A stretch of 64,000 bases of DNA from Takakia lepidozioides (Eukaryota; Plantae; Bryophyta), in contig CM060732.1 of assembly GCA_030704615.1 (NCBI GenBank), positions 25,296,001 through 25,360,000 of the forward strand, in the 5' to 3' direction. The notes beneath the pieces were generated by a model that saw only the letters and a program-made list of their open reading frames with translations, searched no databases and had not been told where the DNA came from. Below are positions 7,390 to 48,888 of this stretch, one piece after another (position 1 is the first letter of the stretch; the number at the start of each line of letters is the position of its first letter). The position numbers and the translations under genes are program-made.

Positions 7390-7515
7390 CCTACCTTTGT
7401 GAGGGGCTCACTCCAGTAGTGCAACTTACCTTTATATTAACAGTTAGTTTGGGCTTTCCATATATCCTCTAGAAAGCCCTTCACATAAGCATCAATCTGC
7501 TGTGTGTTAAAGCTA
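7390..7515 (-). repeat. LINE 3'-ORF2 remnant; inverted homologue at ~14540-14665
   Basis: CTTTGTGAGGGG...TAGAAAGCCCTTC-CA-AAGCATCAATCTGCT is shared in opposite orientation with 14540-14665; reads like IDACAKGFL*EMWKAK (WxxWKxRN-type L1 C-terminus). Confidence 0.45.
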
Positions 7516-22560: not shown

Positions 22561-24871
22561 ACAATGGATAAATCATCGAGCGGGTAGAGGACGTGGCCCG
22601 CCAATACCGCGGGCCACATAAAGGGGATGTAGGCATGTTATAGCAAAACAGGGGAGCCTAGGCCTGGTCTGTCGGTGGAAACGTCCTTGGACATGGGCAA
22701 AACTGTATGGATATGATCCAAGAAATTCTTCCCTCTCATTTTTCTTTTTTTGGGAAAAACAAAATGCATGTTGGCCTGCCCACAAGAAGCAATACTTTAT
22801 CGTCTAGAAAGTATGCTGAAAAACAAGTAAAAACACCATTTTAAGTAAATATGGACAAAAGGATGAAATCTGGACATCTGTTAAATAATTATAAATAATT
22901 AATAAATATGGAAAAAAAAACTATATTCAGTATTAACAATGCATTAAAGCTTACAATTTTGGATTTTCCAGGATTGGTCCGAAAAGTAGCATCGTCCTTT
23001 GCAAAATAACTGACAAGCAAGACACCTATGTTGAATTTGAGGATATCGCTCGTGAGTATATTCACGGAGGGGAGATCTCCCGTGCACTCGATAGGTAGTT
23101 TCTCGCAACTTACGCGAAACGAATCATTCGATTACTACATGATGGTTTAGGGGAGAGAAGATGAGAGGAGCTTTCCCGTGAAAACGTTACAAATTTATGT
23201 CAATATCATATACGGAACAAAGTAAGAGCTTTAAAACCACAATGGGTCCTGACTCAAAATTATTGGTAGAAACATGGAATAATGTTTTTGAATTATTGAA
23301 ACTTAAGGGATATAATTTTTTTTGTCACATTGAGGACATGAAATAACAAACGGAATGCATTGAACCGTCAAATACAAGGTCAGATACCATGTCAAATACA
23401 ATTTCAAGTACCATGTCAGCTTGCTACTAGTGCTTTCAGACCTCCCCCCACCAGGGGAGATCTCCCATGCTCAATACGAGAAGCGTCGAGCCGTCAAATT
23501 AAAAGAAAGTAAGATCTAGAAAATTCACAGGAATTGGTAATCCAGAAATTAAAACTGTCCGGTAAGACAACAGTTATTTGTCACCCTCCGAATACCAAAT
23601 AAGAATCCAGTAAATGCCGAACAGACGTCGAGACATAGCAGAGGAGACCTCCCGTGCCACAACAGAAATCAATAGCACAATCGCGAAAATACAGTTTAGA
23701 ACGTCGGCGTCATAAGGCGTTGCCGTTAATATCGGAGTAGTGAAAGATATTCCGCAAGGGAAGATATGAAGGTTTTGGACCAGACAAAATCCTCATCATC
23801 TTCAGAAAATGAAAACATTTGCAAATCCTTACTATATTCTACAATGAGCTCTAAGAAAAATATAATAATCATGATCGGAAATAGTCAAGTCACTGTAGCA
23901 CGGGATATCTTTCGAGCACTATGTGTAAGGGAGAAAACCATCAACCACCATGGGAAATGAGCCGTCCGACATACAAAATGCGTAGAACCATTAGATGGAA
24001 ACAAAGTAAAATGTACAACCATTCACATCCACTGGCCATTCAAAAATTCAAAATTTTGGAGATCAGAACAAAAGCTATTTGTCCACAGATCAAAAAAGAA
24101 TCCAGTAAGTAATATTAAAAAAACAACGAGACATACCACGGTTACACCTGAAAATCAATAACAACATCGTGATGATACAATTTACAAGGTCAGATTAAGA
24201 AGGGGCTGCCGTTGAAATAGATATATAAAAGGACAGTCCGCTAGGAAAGAAAATACGATATTTGGACCCCGGCATATGCTTATCAGATAACGAACCAAAT
24301 TGGGACTCATAACTATATTATTCAATGAGCACTATGGTGAATGAGAATATTAATCATGTCAGTCTGCAATAGTCAAGAATTTGTAGCACGGGAGATCTCC
24401 CTTGCTATGTGCGTAAAATACAATCAACCAGTCCTCGGAAATCAACCTTGTGTTGACACAAGGTTGATTTCAAGTTCTCCGAAATTAACCTCGTGTTGTT
24501 GTCATCCATGATTCATTCATCCATCTTTTGTCATCCTGCATTCATCCTACATTCATCCATTCCACATAGTCATTCATCCTTAAGAATTTGGCCGCACATT
24601 CCTCTCAAATTTTCATGCATGGAACTCGACGTCTTAGGTCCCAGGCATCATGTGTTACCCTCCGTTCCACTCAACATTGCCCCCACGACAATAGGTCTTG
24701 CTTTTCCCACGGCTATAGGCTCTGCTTCTCTTATGTGCTCACGCTTAGAAATCTGCTCACGCTGAACGAAGTCTGCTTACGCTTAGTGCGCTAAGCATGA
24801 TCGCGCTCACTCGATAGCTTCCCTCCGAAAAAAGAGTTCTGCATTGGATGATTGAATTTTTCTCTTGAGTC

Positions 24872-25868
24872 TCAAAATGTGGGCTTCTCGAGAGCGCGAA
24901 GACAACAAGCCAATGAGCTGATTGTCAAGTTAGGATCACTTGGCCAGAACTCGTTCGTGAACTGAGCATAAGCACCGTCACCATGGCCATGAGTCACCAT
25001 ACATGTTAGGGATATAAGTAGCTGACCAAGACCAGATGTCATCTTGTTTGTTACGAGGAGCCGGGGCAACGCAGTCTTCGAATGATCCATCTTATTGTGT
25101 ATAATACACATAAACTCCTCACCCATCATCGTTGATTCATTTCGCCAACTATGATAAAGCTTGCGACATGACTCTTGATGCTTCAAATGTCTCTCAAATT
25201 TCCTTTTGTTCTTTCTCTGCACCTCAGTTCCGCTGACTGACTTCTGGATAAGATCTTTAAACATCTCACAATCTGTGCATTTCGCGAATTTTCCACCAGG
25301 TTTTCGAACCTCAACATTCCCAAAAAGTTTTGTTCGAATTCGGCTAATTCCAGACTTCAGCAATGCCTTCAAGCCCATTCGTTTGTTCGCTTGATCCAAT
25401 AGTCAACAATATATAGAGTTGGTATCATATTTAGGACGGGAGACCTCCCGTGGACATTGAAATTGAGATCGAATTTCCAATATCTAAATCCAAGAGCTAT
25501 GAAAATTTGATATATGCATAAAGAACGAGAGACACAAAATTTCGTTCTTAAAATATAGATGGACAGATTCGCTCGGAACGATCCATCAATGGACTATCGG
25601 TTAATATTCTGACGATTTGATATCGACTATTAGTACACGTAGCAGAATGATTACGGGAGGTCTCCCGTGACATACGCTCCTTGAAAGTAGAAAAAATATT
25701 TATAGAGGCAGATCCGGATTAGGTTGGAAAGCAGTATTCTACCTCATTCGACTGTCGGTTTAGCTCCTTCCAATTCATCTCCACCGGCAGCAACTTCAAA
25801 ACATCTTGCCTTCCTTCTCCGATACCCCTCATTTTATGAGGCATGAGGTCACTGTTTCTGGAAATCAG
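24872..25868 (-). pseudogene. Transposase-like gene, 3' part (Sola-like/DUF7869-like, tentative), with intron ~25391-25742
   Basis: FAKCTDC...HLKHQESCRKLY...IIHNKMDHSKTALP...HGHGDG...WPSDPNLTI; joins in frame (LLSL|ISRNSDLMPH) with the 36532+ part once the LTR element is removed. Confidence 0.6.
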
Positions 25869-26195
25869 TGTCAAGTTATTTTACCACTAGTGTGAAACTA
25901 GCTAGGAAATAGCTAGCTTTTACATATTGACATTTGGGATTGGCCCAAGTGTCAATCCAGGGGTCAAGGCAGATTTAGGCCCTGGAGTGGTTATCTTCAC
26001 GGCAAGCGCGGGAGGCTCATCTTTCTCGAGTTGAGCCTCACCGCGCCTAGCTATGGCGCCGTAGTGTGGATTCCCCATGGCGTGGGGTGCACTTGGCTTG
26101 ACTTGTATTTGAGTGATGAGGTTATACATGCATGAGTTTATGCTTCAGCTTTGTGAGCTCGCATGAGCTTGTGCTTGTATTCTTCCTCTTTATCA
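25869..26195 (+). repeat. Repeat A1 (327 bp, 5' partial LTR)
   Basis: Matches A2 (36016-36342) with 2 C/T differences seen; ends TATCA. Confidence 0.95.
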
Positions 26196-26211
26196 CTCGA
26201 GAAAGATGAGC
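26195..26211 (+). promoter_or_regulatory. Putative self-priming PBS
   Basis: ACTCGAGAAAGATGAGC is the exact reverse complement of 26015-26031 inside A1; no tRNA-type TGG PBS follows A1. Confidence 0.65.
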
Positions 26212-27424
26212 TCGTATCTATGAGTGCTAGATACGAGTTAGTTGTAGCACTTGTGGTTTTTGCTTGAGAATGAGAGAAACCAAGTTGTTATGCAAGGAGC
26301 ACCGTGGAGCTCTTGGTTGTTAGAAGCGGAGGCGATGTGGGTTACGAGGTGGTAAACCTTGGCATTCGATCTTCAGCTTCAGAGATGAAAGCACCATACT
26401 GTAGGTATTCCAGAAGCACCTTGATGGTTTCAGATTGTGTACATGCATGAGCAAGCACGATTGGGGAGAGGACCAGTCAAGAGCAGGTTATAGTGGCTTT
26501 GGTGGCCAAAGCTGAGAACTGGACTTGGGAATGCGAGCTGTCATTGTGTGAAGGATTGCAAGACCAAGCGAAAGGCCTGATTTGGCTTGGGGCAAATCAG
26601 TGCACTTTGTTGAGTATGGTGAGATTGGGTTTCAATCTCGAGCTTCAGCATTGAGAGGGCTCTTGTCATGGCGAGAGCAGCGGCTGGAACAGGAGCTAAG
26701 AGGTGCGGCAAGGCCATGGAATGTGCACCTAGGGGTACAGAGCTGGAAGAAGAGCTCTTGCACCACAAGAGAAGTGTCTTGTGGCTGGAAATGTAAGCCT
26801 TAGGGTTTCAGGAGCTTGGCAAAGGCTATGGAGTGCTTAGTCTTGTCTAGAGAGCATAAAGGAGCCAAGGAGCAAGATAGGGGCTGATATCTCTTGTTGT
26901 GAAGAGGTTGCATGTGTGGAGCATGTATTCAGCTCATTGAAATTTTAGGCTGGTTTCCACTTGGAGTGAAAGAAAAGCACTTGTAGGGCCTATGTGAGTT
27001 GGGGTTTCAACTTCAAGCTTGAAGGGAGCGCAACTCTTGAAGCAGCAGGTGTAGGGGGCTGGAATAGGCTCTAAGACAGATGCTATGGCAAGGAGAGTGC
27101 TTGAATGAGTGCTCACAAGGGCTGGGAACCAGCAGGGCTTGGTTGTTTGCCATTGAGTTTAGTGGCGTTTGGGAGGCTAAGTGAGAAAGAAGGCTTGGTT
27201 TGTGGCAACCACCTCATGGCTTAGGGCTACTATGGTGGTGTGTGGGAGCCGAAAGAGCAAGGATACCTTGCTGATTTCCTCACAGCCACCATAGCTCGGT
27301 GGAAAGAAGCCTAGAGTCCAAGAGACACCCTAGCTTGGCGTGGCTAAACCCCTTGGAGAAATGGCTAAACTGCCATGCGGCAAGTTTGTAAAAAGACAAA
27401 CAACCCCACATTTTGTTGTGAATG

Positions 27425-28030
27425 AGGCTGTGAATAAACGGGCAAGCCGGCTGTGACAAAAAGGCTGTGACTGTGAAACAAGGCTGTGAGGCTGTGACAG
27501 GCTGTGGAAACACAGGCTGTGAGGGGCTGTGACAACAAGGCGGCTGTGACCCAAAGACAGGCTGTGAGGCTGTGACCCCCTGTGAAGGCTGTGAGGGCTG
27601 TGAGGCAAAGGCGGGCCAAAATGTGGGCTGTGATGGGGCTGTGACAGGCTGTGTGAAGTTGTGAGGGCGGCTGTGAGGGGCTGTGACATGAGGCCTGTGA
27701 AAGGCTGTGACGGGCTGTGTCCGGGCTGTTGTGAGGGCTGTGATGAATCCTGTGGGCCGGTGGGGCTGTGTGATGTTGTGAATGTGAGGGGCTGTGACAA
27801 ATGTGACGGGCTGTGAGGGGCTGTGAGGGGCTTGAGGCGGCGGCTGTTGAGATTGTGATTTGAGGGGCTGTGACCTGTTGGGCCGGGCTGTGTGAGAATT
27901 GACCTTGATCCTGTGCCTGAGACGGGCTGTGAGATGATGTGACGAGCTGTGAGGGGCTGTGACAGGCTGTGCCCAGTGGCCTGTGGGACTGTGACGGCTG
28001 TGACCAGTGAGCTGTGTGGGCCTGTGCTGG
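27425..28030 (+). repeat. Degenerate (GGCTGTGA)n array in the 5' leader of the retroelement
   Basis: Dozens of GGCTGTGA/GGCTGTG units with short spacers. Confidence 0.9.
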
Positions 28031-28291
28031 TCTGTGGTGGCCCGTGTTGACCTGTGGATGGCCTGTGCTGACTCGTGGAGGCACTGGTGGACTAAGGACT
28101 GGCATGTGGTCTGGAAGGCCGAATTTTGAAGCTCGTGGAGGGGTTTGAGGAGTATCTTCATGATATTCCCATGGTCATGCAAGTTCAGGTGTAGGCTATG
28201 TTAGGAACTTAGTATTCCAAACCATAAGCCGCAACAGGTTCTCTACCCGGTTACCTTGTGGAGAGGGGGTTAGGGACATGTTCATGACCGG

Positions 28292-30083
28292 TTGAGTGTC
28301 AACACGGAGGTGCCACTAGTTGCTGGGGACAGTGCCGGTTCGAGCACTAGCGATACTAGTGGGTACACGAGACGAGGTGTGCGGTTTAGGCCACCTTCAC
28401 CTCCTGTGTCTTCCACGGAAGGTTCTGATTCGGATTGTGAATCAGGAGGACTCATACCGGCGGTGCAAGTTGTTTCTTTGCCATTGTTGTGGGACACAAT
28501 GGAGGAGATGTATGGAGCTACCAAGGGGCCACGAAGGTACTCTGGGGCGGTGGGCCATCGAGTTGGATGATTTTATCCAAGAGTTTGATAGTTGTGTGAT
28601 TTGCAGCAAATGCGCAATCCACAACTATTTACGCCGTTCATGGCATGGAAAGGGCTGTTTCAGCACCTTGAGGGGCCTATGGATGATTACCATGAGTTCA
28701 GGCGGGGGCATGAGGTTGAGATCGAGGAGTGGAGGATGTACTGGTCACCCGACTATGTCTCCATCACTAGGGGCACTAGAGCCACGAGGGCAGTGGCTAC
28801 CTGCCGCTGCACCGGCAGCTTCAGCAAGCAGCAGTGGGACTGGTGGTACAGTAGCTACGACGTCCACCCAAGCCACTACCGCACCAGCACTAGCACCCGT
28901 GCCTGCCTTCAACCCTGTTGTGGAGTTCTTCGAAGAGTTGAGAGGGAACTACCAAGGGGTGAGGACAGAGAAGTTGCGGAGCTTGCAAGAGTTCCAACGG
29001 AAGCCGACCGAGAGCTTGAGGGAGGCTTTCACTCGCATGAGGCGCTTGATAAATGTAACCCAAGGGGTTACGGAAGCTCAGGCAGTCCAATTCTGGTATG
29101 GGATATTGGACAAGGAGCTGAGGAGAAGGGTGCGGGATGCAACTCTCCTACAAGCGGCCCAACCCACCTTAGCAAATGTGTTTTTGCTGGCAGAGCGGAT
29201 AGAGCTCAACATGGTGGAGGAACGAGTGGTCATGGTGGGATTTGCTAAGGAGACACCACGGGGTAGTGGTGCTCCTAGCCAACCACTACCTCAACGTGCT
29301 CAAGGCAACAAGGGGGCTCAGGTGAAGCTCAGGGAAGGGCAGAGAGGACCTCAGATGCAGGGGTCTCTCCCTTCATTTGCTGGCCAACAACGGGCGGATG
29401 TGGTGTGCTGGACATGTGGAGGACCCCATGTCAAGAAGGATTGCCCAGAGGGAGGCAAAGGGTCGGCACATGCACAGCCTGCACAGTTGCAGTGTGGGCA
29501 TTGTGGCAAGCACGGGCATGGAGAGGCCCAGTGTTATGGTTTGCATCCTGAGTTGCGCCCAGGCCAGTTCCAAGGGAACAATGGTGGCCGGGGGCGAGGT
29601 GGAGCAGCCCAGAGAGGACGAGGTGGCCAGCCACGAGGTGCAGGCCAAGGGCAAGCTCAACGTGGCCAAGGACGCGGAGGTCAGGGTGTTGACCAAGGCA
29701 TGGCCAACCGGCTTCAGCAGCTAGAGCAGAGGCTCGCTGCCATGGCTACAGCTCAGGTGGTACCGGCTCTAAGGCCGGATGGTCCACCTCCTGCTCCTGA
29801 GGGAGGAGATATGGGAGGCATGGGATTCATGTGTGGAGCAGCACTACCACTAGTGCAGGTGGAGTCTGCTGCAGCCGTGACTCGAGGAGCAGCACGAGTT
29901 CCTGAGCCACGAGGTGCAGAGGTGGAGTTGGATCCACAGCGTGGGGAGGCAAGCCGTCAGGCTAGGCTTCCTCAGTCATTCACATTGGCGGAGACAGTGT
30001 CGACGCCATCCATGGCACCTAGTTCTCGCCCGACTGTTACCGAGGCGGAGGTACTATGCCATTGGGGAGAGCTACACGGGTAG
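28292..30083 (+). CDS. Gag (frameshifted) with two zinc knuckles and an RGG-rich tail
   Basis: ELDDFIQEFD, FQRKPTESLREAFTRM, CWTCGGPHVKKDC, CGHCGKHGHGEAQC, GRGRGG. Confidence 0.85.
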
Positions 30084-30173
30084 CACCACTACCTAGTGTT
30101 GCCAAGGCTACGGCAGCTAGTGTGCTGCTAGGAGCGGCCACATCTGTGTGCCAGGCTCCATTGTTCGGCTACC

Positions 30174-30850
30174 ATGATTGCGACGCCGGGGGTAAGACCA
30201 GCTGAGGTGTTCAGGCTGGCAGCTACACTCTGTGAGAGTGGGGAGGTTACTTCATCTTCTGCGGAGATAGTGGGAGGTGTAGTGCCGGAGGGATCCTCGG
30301 ATTTGAGGGTCAAGACTGCCACGGCGGCGCCATGGCAAGCTGCAGCTGCCAGGTTGATGGAGCTGCCAGCTAGGCCAGCCATTGAGCGCGCCATGGTGAC
30401 ACCTGGAGTTGTCATGTTAGACAACCAGGATGGCATTTTCTGTTTGAGTGGACCGGCAGGCAAGAGGTACCGGCCACTGCGGGTCTTGTTGGACTCGGGA
30501 GCTCAGCCACTGATGCTGGGCAGAGCTGCTATTGCAGGCTTGGGCCTCACGGAGGCGGATATGGAGCCTTGTCCTTTCCAGATACAGACGTCTCTGGGAG
30601 GATCGGAGCAGGCTCGGGGCATGACACGGTGAGTTGGCTATCAGACTACGGCCGGATCACCCTACAGATGGCTCAGTGATGCGAGCCAAGGCCATTGTGA
30701 CAGACGCAGTCTCATACGATGTCCTGGTTGGTGGGGCAGTGTTGTACCCCATGGGCTTCACCCTGGATTTTTGGGAGGAGTCAGCTTCCTATAGGCCTGC
30801 ATGGCAGTCAGGGGAGGGCCGGCGTGTGCAGCTCCCTGTGACGTTCATAG
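30174..30850 (+). CDS. Retroviral-like aspartic protease region
   Basis: VLLDSGAQ catalytic motif, later YDVLVG. Confidence 0.8.
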
Positions 30851-31127
30851 GAGGAGTTGCGGTTGCCCAGCGAGGCAAGATGCCGACACTAGCAGCATTC
30901 ACAGCGGCAGTGAGTTGGCCTAGAGAGTTGCTTGAGGGCAATGCTCATTCAGAGGATGTACCACCTCCGGGAGAGCAGGATGACATGTATGGTATGGCGG
31001 AGTTGCCTACCATGGTTGCTCAGACTCCATTGTGGGGCACGAGCAAGGATTTGCAGCGGGATGCTGATCGACGGGTGCAACAAGCCTGGGTGGAGGCTTT
31101 TGTACCGTCAGGAGAGGAGGAGAGAGT

Positions 31128-32150
31128 GTGGGGATTGCACCAGGACCACCTCAATTGTCTCCATTGGACACCACACCTATTGTGTGGCAGTCTCCGGATG
31201 AAGGCATTTGTCTTCTGGACTTGTTTGGCGGGATCAGCACCGGATTGGCTGCTGTGTTACAGGCAGGTGTACGAGTTCGGCGTTACCTGTATGTGGAGAG
31301 GGATGAGACTGCACGACGCGTTTCACTTCGCCATGTTGCTCAGTTGGTGCAGCGGTACCCTGAGTTGTTGTCGGTGTCTGCAATTCGTGGATATCAGCAG
31401 GCCTTGCCAGCAGACATTTCGTTGCTGGGGGCGCAGGATTTGGAGCGGGTTGGCTCCATTGATCTGGTAGTGGCAGGTTGGCCTGCCAAGGGCATTCATC
31501 AGCCGGGCATGGCAATGGATTGCGAGACTCGAGGTCGGGTCTGTTTTGGGAGATGGTGCGGGTTTTGCGCCACTTGCAGCTTCATCAAGCTGTATCTCCA
31601 GCATACATCTTGGAGAATGTGCCACTGATGGGCGATTCTCGGGCCAGGGTGATGGCCAGTGTGCATCAAGTCCGGTCGTGGCTTGGGTCAGCAGTGTTGC
31701 TAGAGATGCAGCTACAGTGGGGTCACGGGCTCATCGTCCACGGCTATGGTGGACTAACATGATGCCACCCGCACTGCTCAAGCGTGCATTTGATGGGGTG
31801 CAGCGGCCAGCACATCTCACAGTGGATAACATTCTGGACACAGGGAGGCAGTCTCAACGTGTGAGACACGATGACCGTTCGCCTTTGGCAGTGGTCAACA
31901 AGGTGGGTCAACCACGAGCAGCATTACCTACACTGCTCAGCTTCCCAGGATCGCATGCTTTCCGGGATAGTGGACCTGGCCTCCTGTGGGATGCTCAGTT
32001 GCAGCAGTTAGTGGAGCCTAATGCTGACGAGCGTGAGCGGGCAATGGGTTTTACGGGGGGCGGTGTCGTCTCTTTCTGAGGCATCACGTCGTCAAGTGTT
32101 GGGGCAAGCAATGGATCTCAATTGCTTGACCTGGATTATCAGCTTGGCTC
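31128..32150 (+). CDS. C5 cytosine DNA methyltransferase domain (DNMT3-like) inside Pol, frameshifted
   Basis: Motif I LLDLFGGI; II YVERD; IV DLVVAGWP|CQGHS; GLRDSRSGLFWE; VI ILENV; VIII AHRPRLWWTN; IX ERERAMGF; X RRQVLGQAM. Confidence 0.9.
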
Positions 32151-32604
32151 TAGCTGAGCAACGCAGAGTGCGGAATACACTTCCCTCAATGGTCTCTCTG
32201 CCTACCGAGACGGTACAGGCAGTGAGTGGGGGCGAGCATATGAGGACCACGGGGTGCATGCATCCATGGCACACGTGGGAGGTGCTCGAGGTTCAGAGGG
32301 AGTTGGCAGCCAAGGCGGCTGTGATGGATGAGGTTGGGGATTCTTCTCGGGTTGAGGAGGTCCTCAAGGATGAGATGATGGGGCAGGATGAGGCCTTGTC
32401 ATTGACTGAGCAGGTAGGGAGTACTGCTCAAGAGGTTGCAGCATAGCAACCACGGGACGCGTCCTCTACCTCTAAGCCCACTGGACTTAAGGTTGTAGTT
32501 ACGGAGGACAATTGGGAGCCTGACATTGGACCCATTGTCACGGAGGAGAGAGACGACGTATACGGCGGTTCCTGAGGGCTTACAGGAATTGCTTTGCCTT
32601 CAGT

Positions 32605-35420
32605 TTGAAGGACTTGGGAGCACTGAAGGGTCAAGAGATCCGTATTGAGTTGGCCACTGACACGCCAATCTTTCGGAGACCCTATAGATACAGTGACATG
32701 GAGAGGTCTTTGATTCAGATGAGGACTCAAGATCTCTGGGAGGCAGGTTTGGTGGAGCTCTCTGGTGGAGAGTATGCTTCAGCCACAGTGATGCCAGCCA
32801 AGAAGGATGTATGGCAATTGGACGGAGAGACGTATGTGCGGTGATTACCGGCCTGTAAATCGTCAGACCAAGTCCGATAAGTATGCCATGCCAACACCAG
32901 AGGAGATCTTTGATGCCATCGGGCATGCTAAGGCCTTTAGCACTTTGGATTTACGATCCGGATCACCAGTTGCCAATCAAGGAGGCGGACAAGCAGAAGA
33001 CGGCATTCTGGGGGATCAATGAGCACGGCAAGGATTGCCTATATCAGTGGCGGTTCTTACCATTTGGGCTTAAGAATGCTCCTGCAGAGTTTCAGAGAGT
33101 CATGGATAGGATTCTAGCAGGGGTGGACTTTGCTCGGTGCTACATAGATGACATCATCATCTTTAGTGTTACGATGGAGGAGCATGAGAGACACCTTCAG
33201 GTGGTATTGGAGCGCTTGAGAGCGCACGGATTGAAGTTGCATCCGGGGAAGTGCAAGTTTTTCCACAACCAGATTGAGTATCTGGGTCACATGATATATC
33301 CTGGAGGATTGGGGGTACAGCAGACTAAGGTAGAGGCCATTGCACAAATTCCACGCCCCACGGATGTGAGCCGAGTTCGAGCTTTCATGGGGTTGGCAAA
33401 CTATTATAGACGGTTTGTCAAGGGATTTAGTACCATTGCAAAGGCTCTAACCAAGCTGACCAAGGTGGACCAGGAGTGGCAGTGGGAAGATGAGCAGGAA
33501 CGAGCTTTTCAAGAGCTCAAGGCGAGGTTGACCTCGGCGCCTATCTTGAGACGACCTATCAGGGGGCGTCCCTTTCAGCTGCATACGGATTGGAGCATGC
33601 TGGGGCTTGGAGCGGTGCTCACACAGGTGGATGATGAGGGAAGAGAGTTCGTAGTGGCTTACGCTAGCCGCTCGAACAACGCTGCAGAGGCTAAGTACAG
33701 CTCATATGAGGGAGAGTGCTTAGCTGCAGTGTGGGCCGTGGCACACTTCAGGTGCTATCTATACGGCAATCTTTTCACCCTTGTCACGGATCACCAGCCA
33801 CTCAAGTGGTTGATGGAGTCAGACAAGCTTACGGGGAAGCTTGCACGGTGGGCACTTATACTCCAGGAGTATGACTTTCAGGTTGTGCATCGACCGGGTT
33901 TGGTCAATCGGGATGCGGATGGATTGAGTCGCAATCCATGCATGAGCCAGCAGGATGACACTGGAGCTCGGTGGCATGGTGAGACGGACGAGGAGATGGT
34001 GCCGGGATGGCACGCATCTGCATTTTTGTGTATCTTGGCATCGGGAGGTCAGATTGGACCTACAACAGGGATGACTGTAGACGGAGTGTCTGAGGACCCT
34101 GAGGCTAGTGATGAGCTAGGTGGTGCCAGAGATATACATGAGGATTCGGCTGTGTTGGACTACCTCCGCACGGGAGACACGGCAGCCATTGTGACTGCCA
34201 GGGAGAGGGATCGGATCCTGCAACGAGCCAAGAGGTTCAAGTGGGAGGGGATACACCTACTTCGAGTGTGGGAGGATGGTCGGGTGAGGATTGTGCCTCA
34301 CCCCACACAGCGTGCACGGTTAGTGCGGCATGCCCATGAGGAGTTGGGGCATTTTGGAGTGCGACGCACTCACAGTTTACTGCAGGGGCAGTATTGGTGG
34401 CGTGGTATGCATACAGAGGTGCAACAGTTTGTGGCTAGGTGCATGGTGTGTGACAGGGTGCGTGCTTCATTCAACGCCCCTACACCACAGTTGCATCCTT
34501 TACCAATCATGGGATTGGGCTACAGGTGGAGTCTTGACTTCGCAGGACCGTTGCCACTGACTATGCGCCACCACAGATATGTGTTGGTGATGGTGGAGCA
34601 CTTCTCCAAGTGGATTGAGTTGGTTCCATTGCCTGACAAGGCTAGTGAGGGGGCTGCGTATGCATTCTTGGATCGTGTGCTTAGCCGATTTGGTGCTCCA
34701 GCTGAGGTACTCACGGACCAAGGGAGAGAGTTCTTGGGGGAGTTTCAGGCTTTGTGTGATAAAGCCTTGATAGACCACCGCACCACTTCTCGGGATCATC
34801 CTGAGGCCGATGGCTTAGCAGAGAGAGTTGTTCAGACGGTGAAGAGGGGTTTGCGCAAGTATGGCTTGCAGAAGGGACACCTAGGAGATTGGGATCTTCA
34901 GGTTCCTTGGTTAGCCATGGGCTACAGGTTCAGCAAACAAGCATCACTTGCCTCCTTCTCACCATATTTCCTTCTCTTTGGCCGAGAGCCGGATTTGCCT
35001 GCAGCCATTCGTAGGGACACTGCTCAAGTCCTTAACCTTGACGATCCGGACGTGGGTACGTGCATGTGATCAGCGTGCAGAGTTGTTCAAGAAAGTCATG
35101 CCCATGGCTTTTGAGAACCTTGCCATTGCACAGCACCGTGATACGTTGAGGTATGCCACTATACGTGGTGGAGGATATCGTCCTGGGGTTCGGAGGTTTA
35201 GCCCTGGTGACTATTTATTTGCAGCAGACTGCTCCTACGACTCTGGATGTTACTGCAGGGCGTGTTATTCTGAGGGTTCGAGAGGTGTTGCCCTCAGGGG
35301 TCCTGATCTTAGAGGGTCGGGATGGCATGACTTGGAAAGACCATGTGCGTAATTGTGCGCCATGTCACCTTCCCAATGTCGATGGCAGAGTTGACCCAAA
35401 CTTGGCAGTGGTACCTGCAG
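32605..35420 (+). CDS. Reverse transcriptase, RNase H and integrase (Ty3/Gypsy Pol)
   Basis: RMCGDYRPVN, LPFGLKNAP, YIDD, HTDWS..LGAVLTQ, YEGECLA, TDHQPL, HEELGHFG..CMVC, SLDFAG, TDQGREF, GLAER. Confidence 0.95.
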
Positions 35421-35428
35421 GTTTGAGG

Positions 35429-35562
35429 TGCATGCTCTGTGGGTCTGCCAAAGGGGCAGCCACCATGCTGGTGTGATCGATGCTCAAGGGGTTGGCATAT
35501 GGGGATGCTTGACACCACCTCTTGAGAAGGTTCCTGACGGAGATTGGTTGTGTCCACACTGC
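35429..35562 (+). CDS. PHD finger at the integrase C-terminus
   Basis: With two small indels corrected: CMLC..MLV(C)DRCSRGWHMGCLTPPLEKVPDGDWLCPHC = C4HC3. Confidence 0.85.
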
Positions 35563-35829
35563 TTGGGATAGTGGCAGTGGACATGACTGGAGGCAGCTAA
35601 CAAGACATGGGAGGCCAAGCTCATAGGAGTCAATACATGATCCCAAGCTCAAGTTCACAGGTTGCAAGACGGCGACTAACGATGGGGCAACTCTTGCACC
35701 CGGCCTCTTGATCTATCGAGTTTGAGTGTAGTAGGGATAGTGGTGGAGGACTTAGTGAGGCTATGGTCACTATCACATCTTGTGGCTACCTGGACTTAGA
35801 GGGACCTAAGCACCAGCTAGGGGGGCGAT

Positions 35830-36531
35830 TGTGTGGACTAGTGACTGCCATAGTGGGCAGCATAGTGGCAGCCTAGTGACTGACTAGTTGTAGCCTAGTG
35901 GTTGGACTAGTGGCTGGACTAGTACTAGTGGTATACTAGTGTGTGGTGTGCACATGTGTTGTGTGGTTTTGGACAGCGTATGTAGTTGTGTAGCGATATG
36001 TATGCGCACGACAGCTGTCAAGTTATTTTACCACTAGTGTGAAACTAGCTAGGAAATAGCTAGCTTTTACATATTGACATTTGGGATTGGCCCAAGTGTC
36101 AATCCAGGGGTCAAGGCAGATTTAGGCCCTGGAGTGGTTATCTTCACGGCAAGCGCGGGAGGCTCATCTTTCTCGAGTTGAGCCTCACCGCGCCTAGCTA
36201 TGGCGCCGTAGTGTGGATTCCCCATGGCGTGGGGTGCACTTGGCTTGACTTGTATTTGAGTGATGAGGTTATATATGCATGAGTTTATGCTTCAGCTTTG
36301 TGAGCTCGCATGAGCTTGTGCTTGTATTCTTCTTCTTTATCATTGTGTGGACTAGTGACTGCCATAGTGGGCAGCATAGTGGCAGCCTAGTGACTGACTA
36401 GTTGTAGCCTAGTGGTTGGACTAGTGGCTGGACTAGTGGTAGACTAGTGGTATACTAGTCTGTGGTGTGCACATGTGTTGTGTGGTTTTGGACAGCGATG
36501 TAGTTGTGTAGCGATATGTATGCGCACGACA
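35830..36531 (+). repeat. 3' repeat block: B1 (35830-36013) + GC + A2 (36016-36342) + T + B2 (36344-36531), preceded by PPT AGGGGGGCGA
   Basis: Direct comparison of copies; B1-GC-A2 forms a TG...CA LTR right after the PPT. Confidence 0.93.
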
Positions 36532-37256
36532 TCAGCGATAACAAATTTGTCTCGGCCTGCATGGTTTTTGCTCATGGTTTCTTAATTCCTCTGTTTCCAT
36601 GCATTGACGAGATGTATCCATCATTTCTCTTCCTCTTGTATCCATGGTACATTGACCTTCCGATTCCATGGATTGACCAACACGCCTTCTCACAGACCTC
36701 AACTTCCATTGTAAGGTAGGCATGACGACCACAACCTGAAAGTCGGTGTAGTCGTCGGGGGATGTCAAACCCTAACTCTCTCTTTGCATCAAAAGAAGAT
36801 GCATAGAACTTACTCCGGATAGCCTTAGTTTTTTCCCAGCTAAAGTGTTGACAACAGTTTCGAGCACAACAGCTCACAGAGCTTACTACTTGAATTGACT
36901 CCGAATTTAAGAGTCGGATCAATTTCTTCCCCTAGTGTTCCCATCTCCATTTCAAACTCGTTTCAAACATTTATACTGCGATTTCTTAACTCCTTCGAGG
37001 TGGTCATCCTCCGTGTCTGACTCGTGCTCGTCATAAAACTTTGTGAGCAACTTTGATAGTTTGCGGCCGTCTCAAAGTTTTGCAAGATGACGCTCACTAA
37101 ACTACTAGAGAGACGCCTGCCATGACAAAATCCCTCTCTAGATGTATTCAGACATGTACCCTCAGCGACAATTCTGGGAACTGGAGAGCCGACAAGTTGG
37201 ATTAAATTCACGGTTTCTCCGACAAACAACTGTCCACAGGTGCTAACCATCTTCAA
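36532..37256 (-). pseudogene. Transposase-like gene, 5' part (continues at 25868 after the LTR insertion)
   Basis: CCARNCC...VCEKACWSIHGI...HGNRG...TMQAETNLLSL; upstream VAEG..CHGRRL segment resembles Tnp1/EnSpm-type domains. Confidence 0.6.
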
Positions 37257-38766
37257 ACGCGGGAAATGCTATGCCCTCGAGTAAAAAACGGGAAGCAAAA
37301 AAGGTAGAAAAGATGAATATATCAAATGCGGCAACACTCCGCAGGATGACGGGAGATCCCCCCTTATAGTCGCCTCAACACTTAAGTTAGAATCCACACA
37401 AAAATTCTGGATTGTGCAAGATAGAATCTATGCACACCACAAATGCAAATAACACTAAGGGATCACGGGAGGTCTCCCGTTCTGTGATCTCCAATGGGTG
37501 GAAAAAGATAAACAGAAAATAGAGTTCCAGACAACTTGGAAAGGAACTGCTCAAGATGAAGGGAGATCTCCCGTCACATTCCTTTGAATGGTATAACTAG
37601 AGAAGACGAAGACAGATAAATGAGATTAAAAGAAGAGCGACAAAACAAAGAGAAAGTCTAATGGAACAGCACCTCTTCGTTGTGCCAGGCTAAAAAAATA
37701 GACACTGCGTGAGATCAGTGTGTAACTCTTCTGGAAAATACTGATAGAGAATGACTAACAAACATGCAGAGATGAAACACCACTCTCCGTCCTTCCACCA
37801 CCCTTCCACCACTCCTCAGTCAATTCCACCACCTGCACTCCCCAATTCGGCAGGGCTTCGCCGAGACGGAATGAAATGAGATGGAAGATGTTGCCCTTAT
37901 ATAGACCCGCATTTGCATGCTGGGGCATGAGGCCAACCGCACCCATACATGAGGCTTGTACAACAAGGGGAATCGTTTCATTAATTACTTGGCATAATGA
38001 CTGTGACGGGGGGCCTCCCGTACCCGATAGTACGACATCTGCATGGGCGCCACGTGGATGGATATCATCTATGATGTACCTGCACGATGACATCAATGTA
38101 ATCGGTACCGTCTGTCATGGACATAGCCCAGAGGAACTTACCAGGAGTAAATACCAGAAGTTACCAAGTTACCATGTTACCGAAAGTTATCATGACTTAC
38201 CATGATTTATCATGATCTACCATGATTTACCATTACTTACCAAGTTATCGGAAGTTTACCAAATTACTAAGAGTAACTTGGGAAACTGCTCAGGAAGCTT
38301 CCTTTGGATGAAACTTCTCCATCAAGATACCTCCTTTGTTTAATGAAGCTTCTCCATCAATAAACCTCCATAGGGGAAGCTTATTAGGGAAACTTCTTAG
38401 TAGCCAGTATATATAGGAGGCGAGACTGGACACTCTTTAGTCTCGCCAACACCAGTTCAAGCTACTCTTGTTTCCAGTTCCTAGTACTCCAGTCTAGTTC
38501 CCAGAACCCTAGCCCAGTTTCTAGTATCTGGTAATCCAGTCCAGTTTCCAACATTCCAGTATTCAAGTCGCGTTCCAATATATTGTACCCTTGTTCATTG
38601 TTATAAAGATCGCCTTGATTCCTATTTACTCGTCGTGCATACGGCCACGCCGACCTTGACTTCTTGTCTAGTCTTGTACCTCTAGTCTGATCTCTTGTTT
38701 GTGTTCAGTCATGTTCTCATCTTTGACAGTTTAGCGAGACTAAAGTTTGTTCCTTAGTTAGTTAAG

Positions 38767-39787
38767 ATGGAAGGCACATTTGCGGAAATGGTCGCCACAT
38801 TGCAGAGTCTTTAGCTCCAGATGCAAGAACTTCGTGTCTCTACTGCCCAACTACAAGCTGATCAATCTCAAGATCTTGGCAACACTCTCAACAATTTGCA
38901 ACAACAAATTTCAGAGTTGAAGGAGTCGAACAATGGATCTTCAACCTTATAAGTCCCTCCTACAACAAATCATACTGCAACAGTTCCTCCAAATCTTCAA
39001 CAGATTACAAGGGAACCAAAGGTCAGCATGCCCGAAAAATTTAATGGGACGAGATCAAGATTTCGCAGTTTTGTTCAACAAGTACGATTGTTCCTACGAC
39101 TACATCCACAACGCTACCCTGATGAAGGTATTCAAGTGGGATTTGTAGGCACCCTTCTATCCGGCATTACCCTATCTTGGTTTGCACCGCTATTAGAAAA
39201 AAATTCGCATTTACTATACAATTTTGAAGCATTCATGTCCGAGTTTACTGCAATGTTTGGAGAGAATGATAGAGAGAGAGTTGCAGAGACAAAGATGCGA
39301 AATCTTCGACAAGGAGCACGTCCAGCTTCCATTTATGCTGCCGAATTTCAACAACTTGCGTGCGACCTTGACTAGAATGAGAAGAGTCTCATTAGTCAGT
39401 TCGATGTGGCCTAAAAGAGGATGTAAAAGATTTGTTGCTGACAATGTCAAACGTGAGTACACTGAGCGAATTTATCACCTAAGTCATTGCATGCGATAAT
39501 TGTTTGTTCGAAAGACGTCAAGAGAAGCGATCTGGATGGTCGACGACACACCATGCCGCTGCTACTACGGCACCAAACACAACGATCCATCAGACATCCA
39601 GTAATGATCATATGCAGATTGATGTTGTCCGATTCAAGCCATTGACGCCACAAGAAAAACAAAGACGGCGCTCGAATGGATTATGCCTTTATTGCGGAGA
39701 AGATGATCACATAGCATTAAACTGCCCCAACAAGAGAAGATTCAAAGCTCGGGGTACAACTCAAGTGTTCGATACGAGGAGGTCGGA
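38767..39787 (+). pseudogene. Chromovirus gag
   Basis: PKVSMPEKFNG..FVQQVRL, LRQGARPASIYAAEF, MQID, CLYCGEDDHIALNC; stops and frameshifts. Confidence 0.85.
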
Positions 39788-40295
39788 TGTTGTGCACCTA
39801 AGCATCGTGCCACAACATACATCGCTGTCCACCACATAATCTGAGCATACAATCCTAGAAAGCTATACCACAATAGATAAGAGATGGGAAATGAGAGAAG
39901 TGGAAGACAATGAAAACTCTCAAATCATGAAGCAATCACACTAAGAACAAGCCCTAGTCCTTCCAAGTGAAATCCACTCTATCACATAAACTAAGTCAAG
40001 CCAAGGGCACCCTTGCTAAGGGAATCCATCCTACAAAGCCCTCAACACACTCCCTCTCAATACCTAGAGCTATGGAGGTGAGAGAAGCTCATGGAGGCTC
40101 AACTACAAGAAGATGAGCCTCCATCCATCCTCACAAGGGGAAAACCTATCCCCATGTCTCAAGTGAGGCTCGACACCTCACTTGGCATGTGAGACCAAAT
40201 GAAGTCCCAACACATAAAATATAAATATAAATATCTAAAATGTCATAGTTAACTAGAAGTAGGTAATTCTAGATAACCATGACTAACCTACAACA
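39788..40295 (-). mobile_element. Solo A-B terminal unit of a family related to the split-LTR Gypsy element
   Basis: Termini TGTTGT...ACAACA; shares CATCGCTGTCCA, AAGTCAAGCCAAG-GCACCC and GAGGCTCAACT...AAGATGAGCCTCC with the reverse complement of A2-B2; 508 vs 516 bp. Confidence 0.75.
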
Positions 40296-40879
40296 CTATA
40301 TATTCTTCGACCAAGCAAATTCCATTTTTCTCCAATTATGATCATCATCCTCGAGCAAACCTTTTCCACATGAAGACTGTTGGAACAAATACAAGGAGTA
40401 TTCAGATCAACATCGCCAACTCCAACCCCAGTTCAAGGTCGGAGATCGTGTGTGGCTTATTCGACGGGACATGCAAACCTCCCGACCATCAAGGAAGTTG
40501 GATTATCAACGTCTGGGACCATTTAAAATTATTCGACAAATAAATCAGGTCAGTTTTCGGCTTGAACTCCCACAAAGTATGCGCATCCATCCAGTCTTTC
40601 ATATTTCATTACTGGAGTTGTATCATCATCGAATATTCCAGGGAGCGTTTCCGTACCACCTCCACCAATCGAAGTGGCAATCAGGAAATCGAGTATGAAG
40701 TCGACGAAGTCCTAAACTCTCGCATCAAGTATAAACGTCTTAAGTATTTCGTACATTGGAAAGGCTACGACATCAGTGAACGAACGTGGGAACCTTCATC
40801 CAACCTTGCCAATGCATCTGACAAAGTCCAAGAGTTTCATCAACGATATCCAGCTAAACCCCGAGCTACACGTCAATAA
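40296..40879 (+). pseudogene. Integrase C-terminus (GPF motif) and chromodomain
   Basis: KLDYQRLGPFKI..IHPVFHISLL; EYEVDEVLNSR..KYFVHWKGYDISERTWEP. Confidence 0.88.
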
Positions 40880-41535
40880 GACGTCACAACGATGATGTTA
40901 GCCAAGTTAGCTTCAAGGTGAAGACTCCACATTCAGTATATCTGATACACACTAAGGAGGGAGGTTCTCCAACTCTAAGCAAGTCCAAAATTTCACCGCT
41001 CCTCGAGGAACTCGACGCTAGAGGAGGGGCTGATGTCACGGACATAGCCCAGAGAAACTTACCAGGAGTAAATCCAGAAGTTATCAAGTTACCATGTTAC
41101 CAAAAGTTATCGTGATCTACCATTTTTTTTTACCATAAGTTATCATTAGTTACAAAGTTACCGGGAGTTTACCAAATTACCGAGAGTAACTTGGGAAACT
41201 GCTAAGGAAGCTTCATTTGGAGGAAACTTCTCCATCAAGATACCTCATTTGTTTAAGGAAACTTCTCCATCAAGAAACCTCATTGGGGGAAGCCTCTTAG
41301 GGAACCTCCTAGTAGCCAGTATATATAGGAGGCGAGACTGGACACTCTTCAATCTCGCCAACGCAAGTTCAAGCTACTCTTGTTCCCAAACCCAGTACTC
41401 TAGTCCAGTTTCCAGTATCTAGTACCCTAATCCAGTTTCCAGCATTCCAGTATTCGAATCGAGTTCCAGTATCTTGTACTCTTGTCCATTGTTATAAAAA
41501 TCATCTTGATTCATGTTTACCCACCATGTTTGAAA

Positions 41536-42273
41536 ATGAATCTCGAATCAGGCACTGCACACGCTAAGGGTCGGTCAGGATGTCAGCCAAAGCGTTGGCC
41601 AAGATACCATTACCTAGAAGATGAGGAGCTGATGTCCGCTATCCAGAAATTAGTGGAGGAGAACGACAAGGAATCCGATCTAAGCCATTGCAGTGGAAGC
41701 AAAGTAAATGTTGTCGCCCCAGAGAACATACCAGCACATTCACCAGAATACACCCCTGCAGAGGACACGTATTCACCGACAGATTCACCAGCTTACACCC
41801 CTGCAGAGAACTCGTACATACCAGCAGATTCACAAGAATACACCCCTTTAGAGGACACGTATGTCCCAGCAGATTCACCAGTATACATCCCTTCAGAGGA
41901 CATTTACATACCAGCAGCTGTCCACCCAGTGTACATACCAGTAGATTCACCAGAATACACCCATTTAGATGACTTGTATGTACCTTCAGAATCACTAGTA
42001 TACACCCCTGCAGAGGACACTTACATACCAGCAGTTGTCCACCCAGTGTACATACTAGCAAATTCACCAGAATACACTCCAGGACTGTACACTCCACAAG
42101 AGCACGCCCTGGATGCACCTGTGTATCCTCCCGGATCAAATTCCCAGGGTGCACAAGCGTCGAACTCAATCGAAACCGACGAAATCTCCAAAATATTCCC
42201 TGATTGGGTTTCGGACATCGACTCTTGGAGTCCTGGATACTCTCCAGCGACACCTCAAAGGGATCCAAAGTAG
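41536..42273 (+). CDS. Hypothetical Y/S/P/T-rich tandem-repeat ORF (~39-bp units, SPEYTPAEDTYIP-like)
   Basis: Open frame through the repeats; unit CCAGCAGATTCACCAGAATACACCCCT... repeated at ~41720-42090. Confidence 0.4.
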   Translation: MNLESGTAHAKGRSGCQPKRWPRYHYLEDEELMSAIQKLVEENDKESDLSHCSGSKVNVVAPENIPAHSPEYTPAEDTYSPTDSPAYTPAENSYIPADSQEYTPLEDTYVPADSPVYIPSEDIYIPAAVHPVYIPVDSPEYTHLDDLYVPSESLVYTPAEDTYIPAVVHPVYILANSPEYTPGLYTPQEHALDAPVYPPGSNSQGAQASNSIETDEISKIFPDWVSDIDSWSPGYSPATPQRDPK

Positions 42274-42789: not shown

Positions 42790-45576
42790 CTGCCAGAACA
42801 AAGATTCCGAAAGAATCAATCGTAGTGATGAGCGCCGACATTGTCGGTTCCTTCATATATCCACACATTGAAGGATTCACAATAAAGCATGATGGCTTCT
42901 ACGAGCTAAAGAGGAGTATTGACTACTGGGGTATCGACGTTGCTGATCCCCGAACCCAGAGAAAGCCATCTTCCGTTACCAGATCGGTGCAGAAAAGAAA
43001 ACACTTCTGTGTTGTGATGTGTAGGGAATTGAAACGGAGGACTCCGTGAGGAATAACAGGGTTACCCTTGCTGTGTTCATCTGCGAGAATGCCAAGAAAG
43101 GAGAGAAGGTATTTGGGTTCTCTGTTGATGCCATGAGTCTGAGTAGTGATCTGATGGGATTCGCGATTCGATGGGATTCAGGGTCCTTGTTGTCGAAGAT
43201 TCGAAGAAGGTCGAGACGACTCTCATCGAGCAATACCAGGATATATTCCTGTTTGGATTTGAATATGTCCAGGAAGTGGACATCAACTACTGTTTTTTGG
43301 CCCCACAGCATATGGTTTATCGACCACTCTGTGAGAAGCACAAGCTTGAGATTAAATCAAGGATAGTTGCGTACAATCTAATTGACTAAAAAATGCCTGT
43401 TTACTTGATTCCACGACACGAGACCGATCCCACGAAGGTGTGGAGCAGGAAGCCCGTCAATGAGCGCGAACTGCAGAAGACGACATATTTTATTATCGGA
43501 GGCCAACATACATTGATGGCAGCCCAGGTCAGGGGAGGTCTCCCGTGCTAACTCACCTTCGAGAAATTTGGTGACTATCTCCAAGGTTCTGAACAAGCCG
43601 AACAAGGAGAATCTTTACGAACCGTCTTTCTATGAGAAGGTCCGTCACTACAGAAAATATTACAATTACAAGGAGCGGCCCCAGAAGTATGATGAGCATC
43701 GTCGGGTCGAGACTCAGCAGTGGAAGGTGAGTGTGACCATGGGAGGTCTCCCGTCATTTCTTTCCATTCATCTATCACTGCAGCGATGCAATGGATGTCT
43801 ACATTATAGTTGATCGAAATCCAATTTCATCGCCCACACACCAGCAACCACATTCGTTGTCCCAACACCTTCTCTTCCGTTGAGGCCATGTGGGATGTGT
43901 TATGCTTTGTTTTGCGGTGCTTCTCTCTTTCTCCAATCTGGTGACATCCTCGATCTCTAAGAGATCCACGCACCATCAAGATTTGAAGTTGGGGATGATG
44001 CTTCATGATGTGATTGTCTCTTGGTTACTTAAGGGTTTCTGTATACAGGTTTGACTCTGTTCTAGGTCGAGAATGTCTCCAGAAAGAGGAAATGGAGAAG
44101 CACCGCAATACAAAGTAAGAGACACTCCAGAATGATTGACCAATTGTCAGCATCCTCTTGGTTGGTTTAAATCATCAGTTGAAGGTGTTAGTAGGAAGTT
44201 AGCTGGAAGTGTTTGAAGTGTTGGAGTTAGCTGGAAGTCAGCCGGAAGTGTTGGCTGAATGTGAAAGTTAGCAAGGGAGACCTCCCGTGGTAGTTAACTA
44301 CACTTGCTGGTATGTGTAGGATTTCATGGTCGGAGCTCAAACCATTCTGGATGTGAAAAGCGACAAAGAGGCAATGCCACTTGTGTTCACCTCCGATCGG
44401 ACCTGGAATTATTGGACAAGAGTGTTCATGAAATGGGAGAAGGGCGAGCTCATTGATCCCAAAGGGAATATCCTTATGAAAGAGCAGCCAAAGCTAAAAA
44501 AATCTAGCGTTGCTCGACTGCAGGGTTTAGACGACAACCAGATTTGGAAGGTTGCCGCCATGTTACTCAAAAACAAAGTGTCGATGCGTCATCCATACAC
44601 TGGGCCTGACCCCGATGTTCTGAGTCTAGAGGATTATTGCAAGTACAAGAAGTTGAGGAGGCACATTATTGATGATATCATGGTCGGTTTTGGATTTAAG
44701 GAGCCGACGAAGGACAACCGACATCCATACACAAAGTTGGAGTGGACCGCCATCAAACATAAGTACGAAATCAACAAGGCCCAGTTTGTGCACTTTAAGA
44801 ATGCTCTCGGGATCCCCTACCTTGACGCGGAAATGAAGCCAACGACAGGAAAGCAGAAGCAACCACTTCAATTTCTGAATCTAATTCAAGCCGTGAAAAC
44901 GCTTGCAGAGACTCCACGAGGTTCGCTTGATAGAGTTTACAATGTGTGCGAGATTGGAAACAAGGCTTGGGAGATTGGGACGGTGGCAATGTTCGCCACA
45001 AAAGCATTTGAAGTTGTTTTGCTCATCATAATCAGCACATTGAATGAGCATCCAGACAAGATCGAGCCTTGGACGGAGAATGAGTTCGCCGACCTCTTCA
45101 ATGGCATGAGGTTAAGAAAAATCAGGACCAACGTATTCTGTGTCATCACCGATACTGATAGCTCTCGTGAGCTGATAGCGTACATTCAATCCTCAAAGGG
45201 GAAATTCCTTATAGAGACAAGCTTCTACATTCCATCGAAGAGGGAGATTTTTTTCAAGACAAGGAATTTTGAAATTCCAGTCGTTCTTTTCCATTTCATT
45301 TTTCCGATGGCAGACGCGGAGTGGGACAACGTGGACGAGGTCGTGCGGAGGAGCATCACAGCCGACGATCGATACATCCCAAGAGTGCTACGTACAGAGG
45401 CGGAGGAATCTGAAAATCCTCTGCAAAGTCGCTACTACAATAATGAGATCCAATCATCGGCCATCGACCAGGTCGTTGAGACCTTCTGTCGGGAGGGCTC
45501 TTCCGAAGTCAAAGTGTATTGTGGCGGGATTGTCACATACTCGCTTCTAGTAAGAACGTACAAACTCAAATCTTAA
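42790..45576 (+). pseudogene. Multi-exon transposon-associated gene with a ParB-like N-terminal motif and a 416-aa open exon
   Basis: YRPL...YFIIGGQHTLMAAQ (GGQH at 43498-43509) followed by a GT donor; ORF 44326..45576 preceded by an AG acceptor. Confidence 0.45.
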
Positions 45577-45639
45577 TTTTACTTCTTGTAAACCCCATTA
45601 TTACCGTGCTACGGACAGTACCAGATGATATAGGGAGAT

Positions 45640-47400: not shown

Positions 47401-47638
47401 TTAACATCTTTGTGTTGGGACTGCCTAGTTACTGAATGGTACTAACCGGATAATTTTTTATCCATCGGGAATCGAACTGTAGGGTGTTGGAAGTGACGCC
47501 CTGGTCATATGGTCTCAGCAAGAGCCTCTGCTGAGAAATCCTTCAACCTTATCAGACTGTTGCGTTCAAAGGTTTCCGCTGAACAGGCACAATCAGTCTG
47601 AGGGCAGGGGCGAGGGATCTGCTGGGGGTGAGGGTATT

Positions 47639-48643: not shown

Positions 48644-48888
48644 AACCCTGACACTTTAAGGCAATCACAAATTAATTTTTTCTCATGGACTTTCAGTGGA
48701 GGGCATATCTGCCGCTTTTGAGCCACTGTAGTCTGCACTTACCCTACAACATTTTGACTTATATCCCTAAGCACAAACTCGGTTTTGTTTAAGTCGCCAT
48801 AAATTCTAGATTCATCTTCTACTTTACTACACATCAGTAATATAGCTGCCGATGGTCACATCCAAAGCTAACCGTTGAATCTTGACAG

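Follow-up and report, generated by a model that had tools for sequence, protein, structure and literature searches.

Well-studied long terminal repeat (LTR) retrotransposons and retroviruses use the ends of a linear complementary DNA (cDNA) as the integration substrate, and the circular forms are described in the accessible part of PMC4372172 as mostly dead ends. HIV-1 integrase cleaves the palindromic junction of 2-LTR circles, and such circles can feed integration, according to passages of PMC1905944 and PMC4372172. A different repeat order, A-coding-B-A-B, is given in the available sections of PMC7192593 and PMC5890265 for the DIRS-type PAT-like, Ngaro and SymbioDIRS-Dnmt3 elements, for which a circular intermediate has been proposed. 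DIRS-type repeats and Gypsy domains are combined in KnitGypsy-Dnmt3 of Klebsormidium nitens, as stated in a figure legend (de Mendoza et al. 2018, PMC5890265, Fig. 4c legend), and streptophyte Gypsy-DNMT3 elements are named, and only named, in the accessible text of a preprint (10.64898/2026.05.21.726589). Here we analyse a decayed Ty3/Gypsy element of the moss Takakia lepidozioides with a similar repeat order, located in a 64,000-nt stretch of contig CM060732.1 (positions 25,296,001 to 25,360,000; the window, in whose coordinates all positions are given). We infer, with a probability of about 0.7, that the integrase of this element cuts a palindrome inside the LTR of a circularised DNA copy, not the ends produced by reverse transcription.

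The element reads, in order, TCAG, A1, internal region, B1, GC, A2, B2, TCAG, with all its stranded features on the forward strand (+). The left target-site duplication TCAG (25865..25868) is followed by repeat A1 (25869..26195), which forms the left genomic end, begins with TGTC and is predicted to comprise the distal part of the unique 3' region (U3), the terminal RNA repeat (R) and the unique 5' region (U5). At the other side, the polypurine tract AGGGGGGCGA (35819..35828), conserved before B in relatives, precedes repeat B1 (35829..36013; predicted proximal U3), a central GC (36014-36015), repeat A2 (36016..36342) and repeat B2 (36343..36531), which forms the right genomic end with GACA and abuts the right duplication TCAG (36532..36535); the A2/B2 joint is the putative join of the cDNA ends. 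A1 and A2 differ at 2/327 positions; between B1 and B2 there are one substitution and two indels (5 nt and 1 nt). At 36010-36019, GACA-GC-TGTC forms a perfect 10-bp palindrome, the presumed integrase attachment site, and the element ends TGTC and GACA are its two halves minus the central GC. Every coordinate of this layout, with its TCAG duplication, holds as proposed in a first-pass annotation of the locus, and the genomic ends, which were there taken for the palindrome halves without the central GC, are of this kind in the window copy and in its relatives. The T described there as an extra base at the A2/B2 join is present, but is most simply read as the base with which B itself begins (35829 and 36343) and not as a separate one, because B of the nearest related family begins directly after GGGGGGCGA and joins A flush. 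With the T assigned to B, the LTR defined by reverse transcription need not be of the TG...CA form; in one related family the cDNA-type LTR start is ATACATG.

The permuted layout was found repeatedly among relatives, collected as 80 metagenome loci by integrase alignment (55–81% identity). A recognisable 3' B was present in 54 of these loci, 5 had an upstream A only and 21 gave no match (14 ending no more than 750 nt from the integrase match, 6 interrupted or truncated, and L015). The 54 loci represent 44 distinct insertions, as distinguished by right flank, in three families. Their 3' ends have the order purine tract-B-xx-A-B in 25 insertions and purine tract-B in 18; one is degenerate. Relatives with two ordinary B-GC-A LTRs, which the first-pass annotation had named as the finding that would contradict it, were looked for, and an ordinary full 3' LTR was found in 0/44 insertions of the three families; neither these relatives nor the window copy possess the two complete terminal direct LTRs of Ty3/Gypsy elements. 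Right ends finished in ACA in 39/43 cases. Among the copies with both ends visible (n = 8), exact 4-bp duplications were observed in 5 (L005, L013, L029, L032 and L044), and 3/4 bp matched in L031. The chance of one such duplication is ~1/256, giving p ~5e-11 for 5 exact duplications in 8. The TGTC starts and (G)ACA ends anticipated for the relatives are thus seen family-wide, with an exact 4-bp target-site duplication in 5/8 only. The window copy itself combines TG...CA ends (TGTC...GACA) with a duplication of 4 bp, within the 4–6 bp looked for. More distant elements show the same features: L083, of another family, has the order B-GC-A-B with B1 = B2 across 106 nt, and contig L084, in which the integrase is only 48% identical, also ends on CGACAGCTG. 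The palindrome also occurs in L015, which belongs to another family and is a collapsed circular contig; L082 is likewise a collapsed circular contig. L082–L084 are elements of the clade from genome bins of prokaryotes (titled cyanobacterium and Minisyncoccia), where they most likely represent eukaryotic contamination.

Assembly artefacts were considered from several sides. All insertions present in more than one assembly were concordant in layout (9/9), some of these assemblies possibly being re-assemblies of one data set; L008 shares 99.4% identity with L004 as far as B1 and is possibly an assembly variant. Four public runs supplied contigs for a comparison with 35600-36800, which covers the right end of the element only. 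In run X1, 38 contigs extended past 36531 into sequences that differ from one another (agreement 0.36), and the summed depth dropped from 862,777 to 576 across 36531, depth not being copy number; for this reason, depth ratios among A, B and the internal region were rejected as an estimate of the proportion of single-B copies. Loose contig ends were compared for 17 of 215 entries, a subset in which a lack of ends at the B start or A end carries no weight. In run X7, a single 551-nt contig contains B1-GC-A2-B2 in this order (35848-36391). Viral contigs were searched as well and yielded nothing useful. A diverged related family is represented in the window by a solo A-then-B unit (39788-40295, −), with the ends TGTTGT...ACAACA, located at a deletion within another LTR element that lost most of pol. 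The B end of the solo unit aligns exactly with the B2 end, and its B variant was found after a purine tract in run X6.

The ACA-GC-TGT palindrome is conserved across families. The spacer between B1 and A2 is 2 nt long in 23/25 copies, the other two being misaligned, and its sequence is GC in 8, AC in 8, AT in 5, GT in 1 and TT in 1, so that 22 are GC or transition forms of it. The sequences of the cDNA ends differ among families (GTTG.., GTTTGG.., ATACATG..), one family having no TG at this position. Since the palindrome is conserved whereas the ends set by the purine tract and the primer site vary, selection appears to act on the internal site. The A/B joints vary between copies; in family F3, many joints contain as many as 4 nt that match the primer site or the purine tract, and the insert in L010 is longer. 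Such variable joints with primer-site remnants are expected if the joint is re-made from cDNA ends in each cycle. Transversion distances between B1 and B2 within and between copies were 0.006 vs 0.011, 0.015 vs 0.051 and 0.013 vs 0.029 (L050, L069, L034 and L078, truncated or partly aligned, were excluded). B1 and B2 of one copy are thus about twice as close as those of different copies, as expected if both come from one template, and no fixed difference distinguishes B1 from B2. GC followed the terminal ACA in only 1/39 right ends, demonstrating that the target does not supply the GC. The loss of exactly 2 nt beside CA, together with 4-bp duplications of varied sequence, indicates DDE chemistry.

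Signals for LTR-type reverse transcription are retained. As in Ty3/Gypsy elements generally, a primer-binding site follows the 5' repeat and a purine tract precedes the 3' LTR; the primer site stands right after A1 and the purine tract right before B1 in all families. In the window copy the primer-binding site (26195..26211) abuts the end of A1 and is of the self-priming type: its 17 nt are the exact reverse complement of a predicted self-primer within A (26015..26031), oriented to prime into U5. The complementarity is kept with different sequences in families F1–F3, spanning 12–22 nt with at most one mismatch in 8/12 A1 copies and 8–11 nt in the other 4. The primer:primer-site helix has a probability of 0.73 with the predicted RNA start at 26010-26015. 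These observations argue for self-priming, with transcription beginning ~146 nt into A1.

The coding region has the Ty3/Gypsy domain order gag-protease-reverse transcriptase-RNase H-integrase, with a cytosine methyltransferase inserted between protease and reverse transcriptase. A long 5' leader (26212..28319), with a low-complexity GCTGTGA-rich tract near 27.4–28.1 kb, precedes gag; no Pfam family reached the cut-off in its open frames, and it showed no similarity to the fetched loci. The gag frame (28320..30083) has visible Cys/His knuckles and a weak Retrotrans_gag match (E 0.004, below the cut-off). Reverse transcriptase, RNase H, the HHCC finger and the integrase core were found by Pfam in a 736-amino-acid frame; the reverse transcriptase and RNase H region occupies 32581..33872, with its N-terminal part in other frames. 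Protease, methyltransferase (~31150-32140) and PHD finger were placed by comparison with homologous proteins: an aspartic-protease region (30165..30701) with LLDSGA at 30486, a Dnmt3-like cytosine methyltransferase domain (31152..32137), segments of which are 63–85% identical to a Marchantia protein matching PF00145, and an integrase C-terminal part with PHD finger (35213..35568), aligned to protein P0002, which matches PF00628. No chromodomain is present at the integrase C-terminus; the PHD finger stands there instead. The protease, methyltransferase and PHD regions are all frameshifted, and the window copy is therefore dead.

The integrase (34302..35220, with a frameshift near 35054) retains its HHCC finger and an intact triad (codons 34536, 34716 and 34821). 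The canonical spacing is D,D(35)E. The window integrase departs from this Ty3/Gypsy pattern: its D(34)E spacing (34716-34823) is one residue shorter than that of Ty3 and foamy virus. Among 121 homologues, D(34)E was found in 65/75 scorable proteins, Closterium and Tetraselmis included, and the 10 D(35)E proteins are among the weakest matches of the set; D,D(34)E is thus a candidate marker of the clade. The best solved relative of the integrase is Ty3 Gag-Pol (7q5b, E 5e-20). The presence of a DDE integrase, previously claimed for this element, is confirmed by the finger and the triad, and no tyrosine recombinase was found by Pfam in the frames scanned. The closest named proteins are those of the liverworts Calypogeia, Riccia and Marchantia (77–79%), followed by Closterium, Klebsormidium and Tetraselmis, with 45–49% identity for Klebsormidium, an affinity that points to a bryophyte as the probable host. 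By its proteins the element is a Dnmt3-bearing streptophyte-type Gypsy and not a DIRS element, the Dnmt3 subtype being taken from PMC5890265.

The cycle that we propose would start with an RNA initiated within A1 near 26010-26015, terminated in A2 and priming itself. Ordinary LTR reverse transcription would then give a linear B-GC-A...B-GC-A molecule, and imprecise joining of its two ends, by host end-joining or a reverse transcriptase jump, would create the A/B joint. In the primer-site-proximal LTR, the D,D(34)E integrase would nick both strands of ACA-GC-TGT, in each case after CA, leaving CA-3'OH ends and 2-nt overhangs like those of processed retroviral ends; a palindrome of the type ACAGCTGT is the predicted integrase substrate. 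The copies show the outcome, with the GC lost, a 4-bp duplication and the layout A-internal-B-GC-A-B. An insertion of this layout keeps the A1 promoter part and both copies of R, and would thereby be able to replicate again.

Several observations weigh against this scheme. The circle and its cleavage are deduced from junction anatomy, the transcript ends are predicted, and short-read assemblies, the source of the relatives, can collapse repeats. No duplication flanks two of the eight both-end copies (L072 and L081) or the solo unit at 39788-40295. B1 has its own B2 as nearest neighbour in only 5/21 copies, transition decay blurring the signal, and for an RNA start at 26005 or further upstream the primer helix has a probability of only 0.002. 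Because a free 2-LTR circle contains the palindrome twice, in identical form, A-B-GC-A-internal-B would be expected as often as the observed form. However, B was found before A1 in 0/10 distinct left ends, including 0/6 of single-B copies, and with no A-B-A-internal-B copy seen, a bias toward the primer-site-proximal palindrome is needed. The 2-LTR-circle reading of the first-pass annotation thus stands as the best inference, but not with random opening of the circle, which predicts such copies.

This asymmetry bears on two of the alternatives. Integration through the internal attachment site might proceed without any free circle: the left palindrome would be cut on linear or partial cDNA, and the retained B piece then joined to the right end by a reverse transcriptase jump or repair. 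Opening of the primer-site-proximal palindrome only would be explained, and cutting both palindromes of linear cDNA would directly yield the 18 single-B copies. However, an additional hand-over step is needed, for which we know of no precedent, and the variable joints are equally consistent with end-joining of a circle; we consider this route unlikely, though worth keeping in mind. The asymmetry is also built into a PAT/Ngaro-like cycle, where the RNA would span A1 to B2, B1-GC-A2 would template circle closure and a DDE integrase would replace the tyrosine recombinase, so that one junction only is re-made. The A-B-A-B geometry is indeed that of the split-repeat DIRS elements in the available parts of PMC7192593 and PMC5890265. 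Against such a cycle stand the purine tract and primer site, which in all families lie directly before B1 and directly after A1, respectively, a predicted 5' end that falls 146 nt into A1, the variable A/B joint, whose primer-site remnants are not those of an inherited sequence, and subfamily variants common to B1 and B2. It is accordingly improbable, somewhat more so than integration without a free circle.

Split direct repeats are typical of tyrosine-recombinase retroelements, and a recombinase acting in trans could in principle recombine the circle at the palindrome. The scanned frames gave no recombinase match, the integrase triad is conserved, the central GC is lost without being target-supplied (1/39), and the 4-bp duplications are varied, which makes this highly improbable. 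That a single rearrangement or an assembly error produced the layout from an ordinary LTR element is equally improbable. The read-contig check covers only the right end of the window copy, but the same ends occur in at least four other families and in the diverged solo unit in the window, the 38 contigs have unlike flanks past 36531, and the 9/9 repeat insertions agree. At the level of the family, this alternative is effectively refuted.

The second abundant form, A-internal-B, accounts for 18/44 insertions (L013, L029, L031, L032 and L072 among them). In the single-B copies with two intact ends (n = 5), a 4-bp duplication was present in 3 and a near match in 1. On an integrase tree, single-B and B-A-B copies were interleaved, with 12 changes compared with a shuffled mean of 14.2 (65–78 of 500 shuffles were as low). 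Without separation on the tree, the two forms are not distinct subfamilies. Single-B copies may originate from a 1-LTR circle, doubly cut linear cDNA, recombination between B1 and B2, or assembly collapse. They have no 3' R and are likely dead by-products.

Enzymes of the DDE class that open abutted ends around a short spacer, which is then lost, are known from IS3/IS30-type elements. The proposed step is similar, but those are DNA transposons with a junction made by the transposase, whereas in the window element the site is encoded in U3 and copied by reverse transcriptase. A DDE integrase can also cut the palindrome of abutted attachment sites in HIV-1 and foamy virus, as reported in the accessible parts of PMC1905944, PMC4372172 and PMC1180852, and this cleavage of 2-LTR junctions makes the proposed chemistry plausible. 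There, the palindrome is the end-to-end junction and its use a minor route restoring an ordinary provirus; in the window family, the palindrome lies inside U3 and is used by all copies seen. Self-priming resembles that of Tf1/Sushi and Tcn1 chromoviruses, the primer site of which is complementary to their own LTR (PMC6317226, in the passages available), but these have ordinary LTRs and a chromodomain, in contrast to the PHD finger, methyltransferase and permuted ends of the window element. Compared with DIRS-type elements, the split-repeat order A1...B1-A2-B2 is present, but a tyrosine recombinase without a DDE integrase is not: the window element has a DDE integrase, an LTR-type purine tract and primer site, a 4-bp duplication and the 2-nt loss.

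KnitGypsy-Dnmt3 comes close, with a Gypsy Pol embedding a Dnmt3-like domain and A-coding-B-A-B repeats in the accessible text; in the window copy this domain is broken, and its proteins are closer to those of liverworts (77–79%). The Klebsormidium homologues found here (45–49%) may not be the published KnitGypsy-Dnmt3 copies. The accessible text on KnitGypsy-Dnmt3 contains no account of termini, duplication, palindrome, priming, PHD finger, D(34)E spacing, single-B form or mechanism. In the open-licence literature we found no description of LTR-retrotransposon integration through an internal palindrome. The earlier statement that such a mechanism was not known for plant Ty3/Gypsy elements therefore stands as far as the mechanism goes, while the layout had already been noted in the legend of PMC5890265. 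We think it reasonably probable, though less so than the mechanism itself, that in green algae and bryophytes an old clade of Gypsy elements with a PHD finger and D,D(34)E integrase moved its attachment site from the cDNA ends into U3, made integration of circularised cDNA obligate, and arrived convergently at DIRS-like split repeats while using an enzyme of the retroviral type.

If this is true, the clade would provide a tractable natural test of circle-based DDE integration, plausibly in a liverwort model, as Marchantia has relatives of the element, and would account for the oddity reported a single time in Klebsormidium. An integrase able to open circular donor DNA at a short, defined site could also be of interest for gene delivery. 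LTR finders that require matching terminal repeats, TG/CA ends and a duplication would miss the lineage even where it is abundant. A plant reference survey selected elements by two LTRs, a duplication and TG/CA ends, as described in the accessible part of PMC6317226, and by these criteria the permuted form is not captured.

Other features of the window were noted. A second LTR element at ~38120-41520 (+) has ordinary LTRs that are 83–91% alike; the region from protease to integrase core is deleted, and gag, the integrase end and a chromodomain-like tail are recognisable by eye. Directly after it, at 41700-42100 (+), lie 45-nt tandem repeats in a Pro/Tyr/Glu-rich open frame. Many copies of a CGGGAGGTCTCCCG-type motif occur in both orientations at 23875-25402, 37340-37570 and 43700-50400, and these tracts are probably another repeat family into which the Gypsy element inserted. 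Unannotated open reading frames are found at 44320-49764, one with a NIF phosphatase match, and at 24872-25402. Inverted repeat arms at 7379-7507 and 14544-14673, 7 kb apart, surround Myb/SANT-like frames (12660-13184), and this is possibly a PIF/Harbinger-type DNA transposon. A PPR-repeat gene at 55998-57587 (−; Pfam PPR_2, E 5e-83) is consistent with a land plant.

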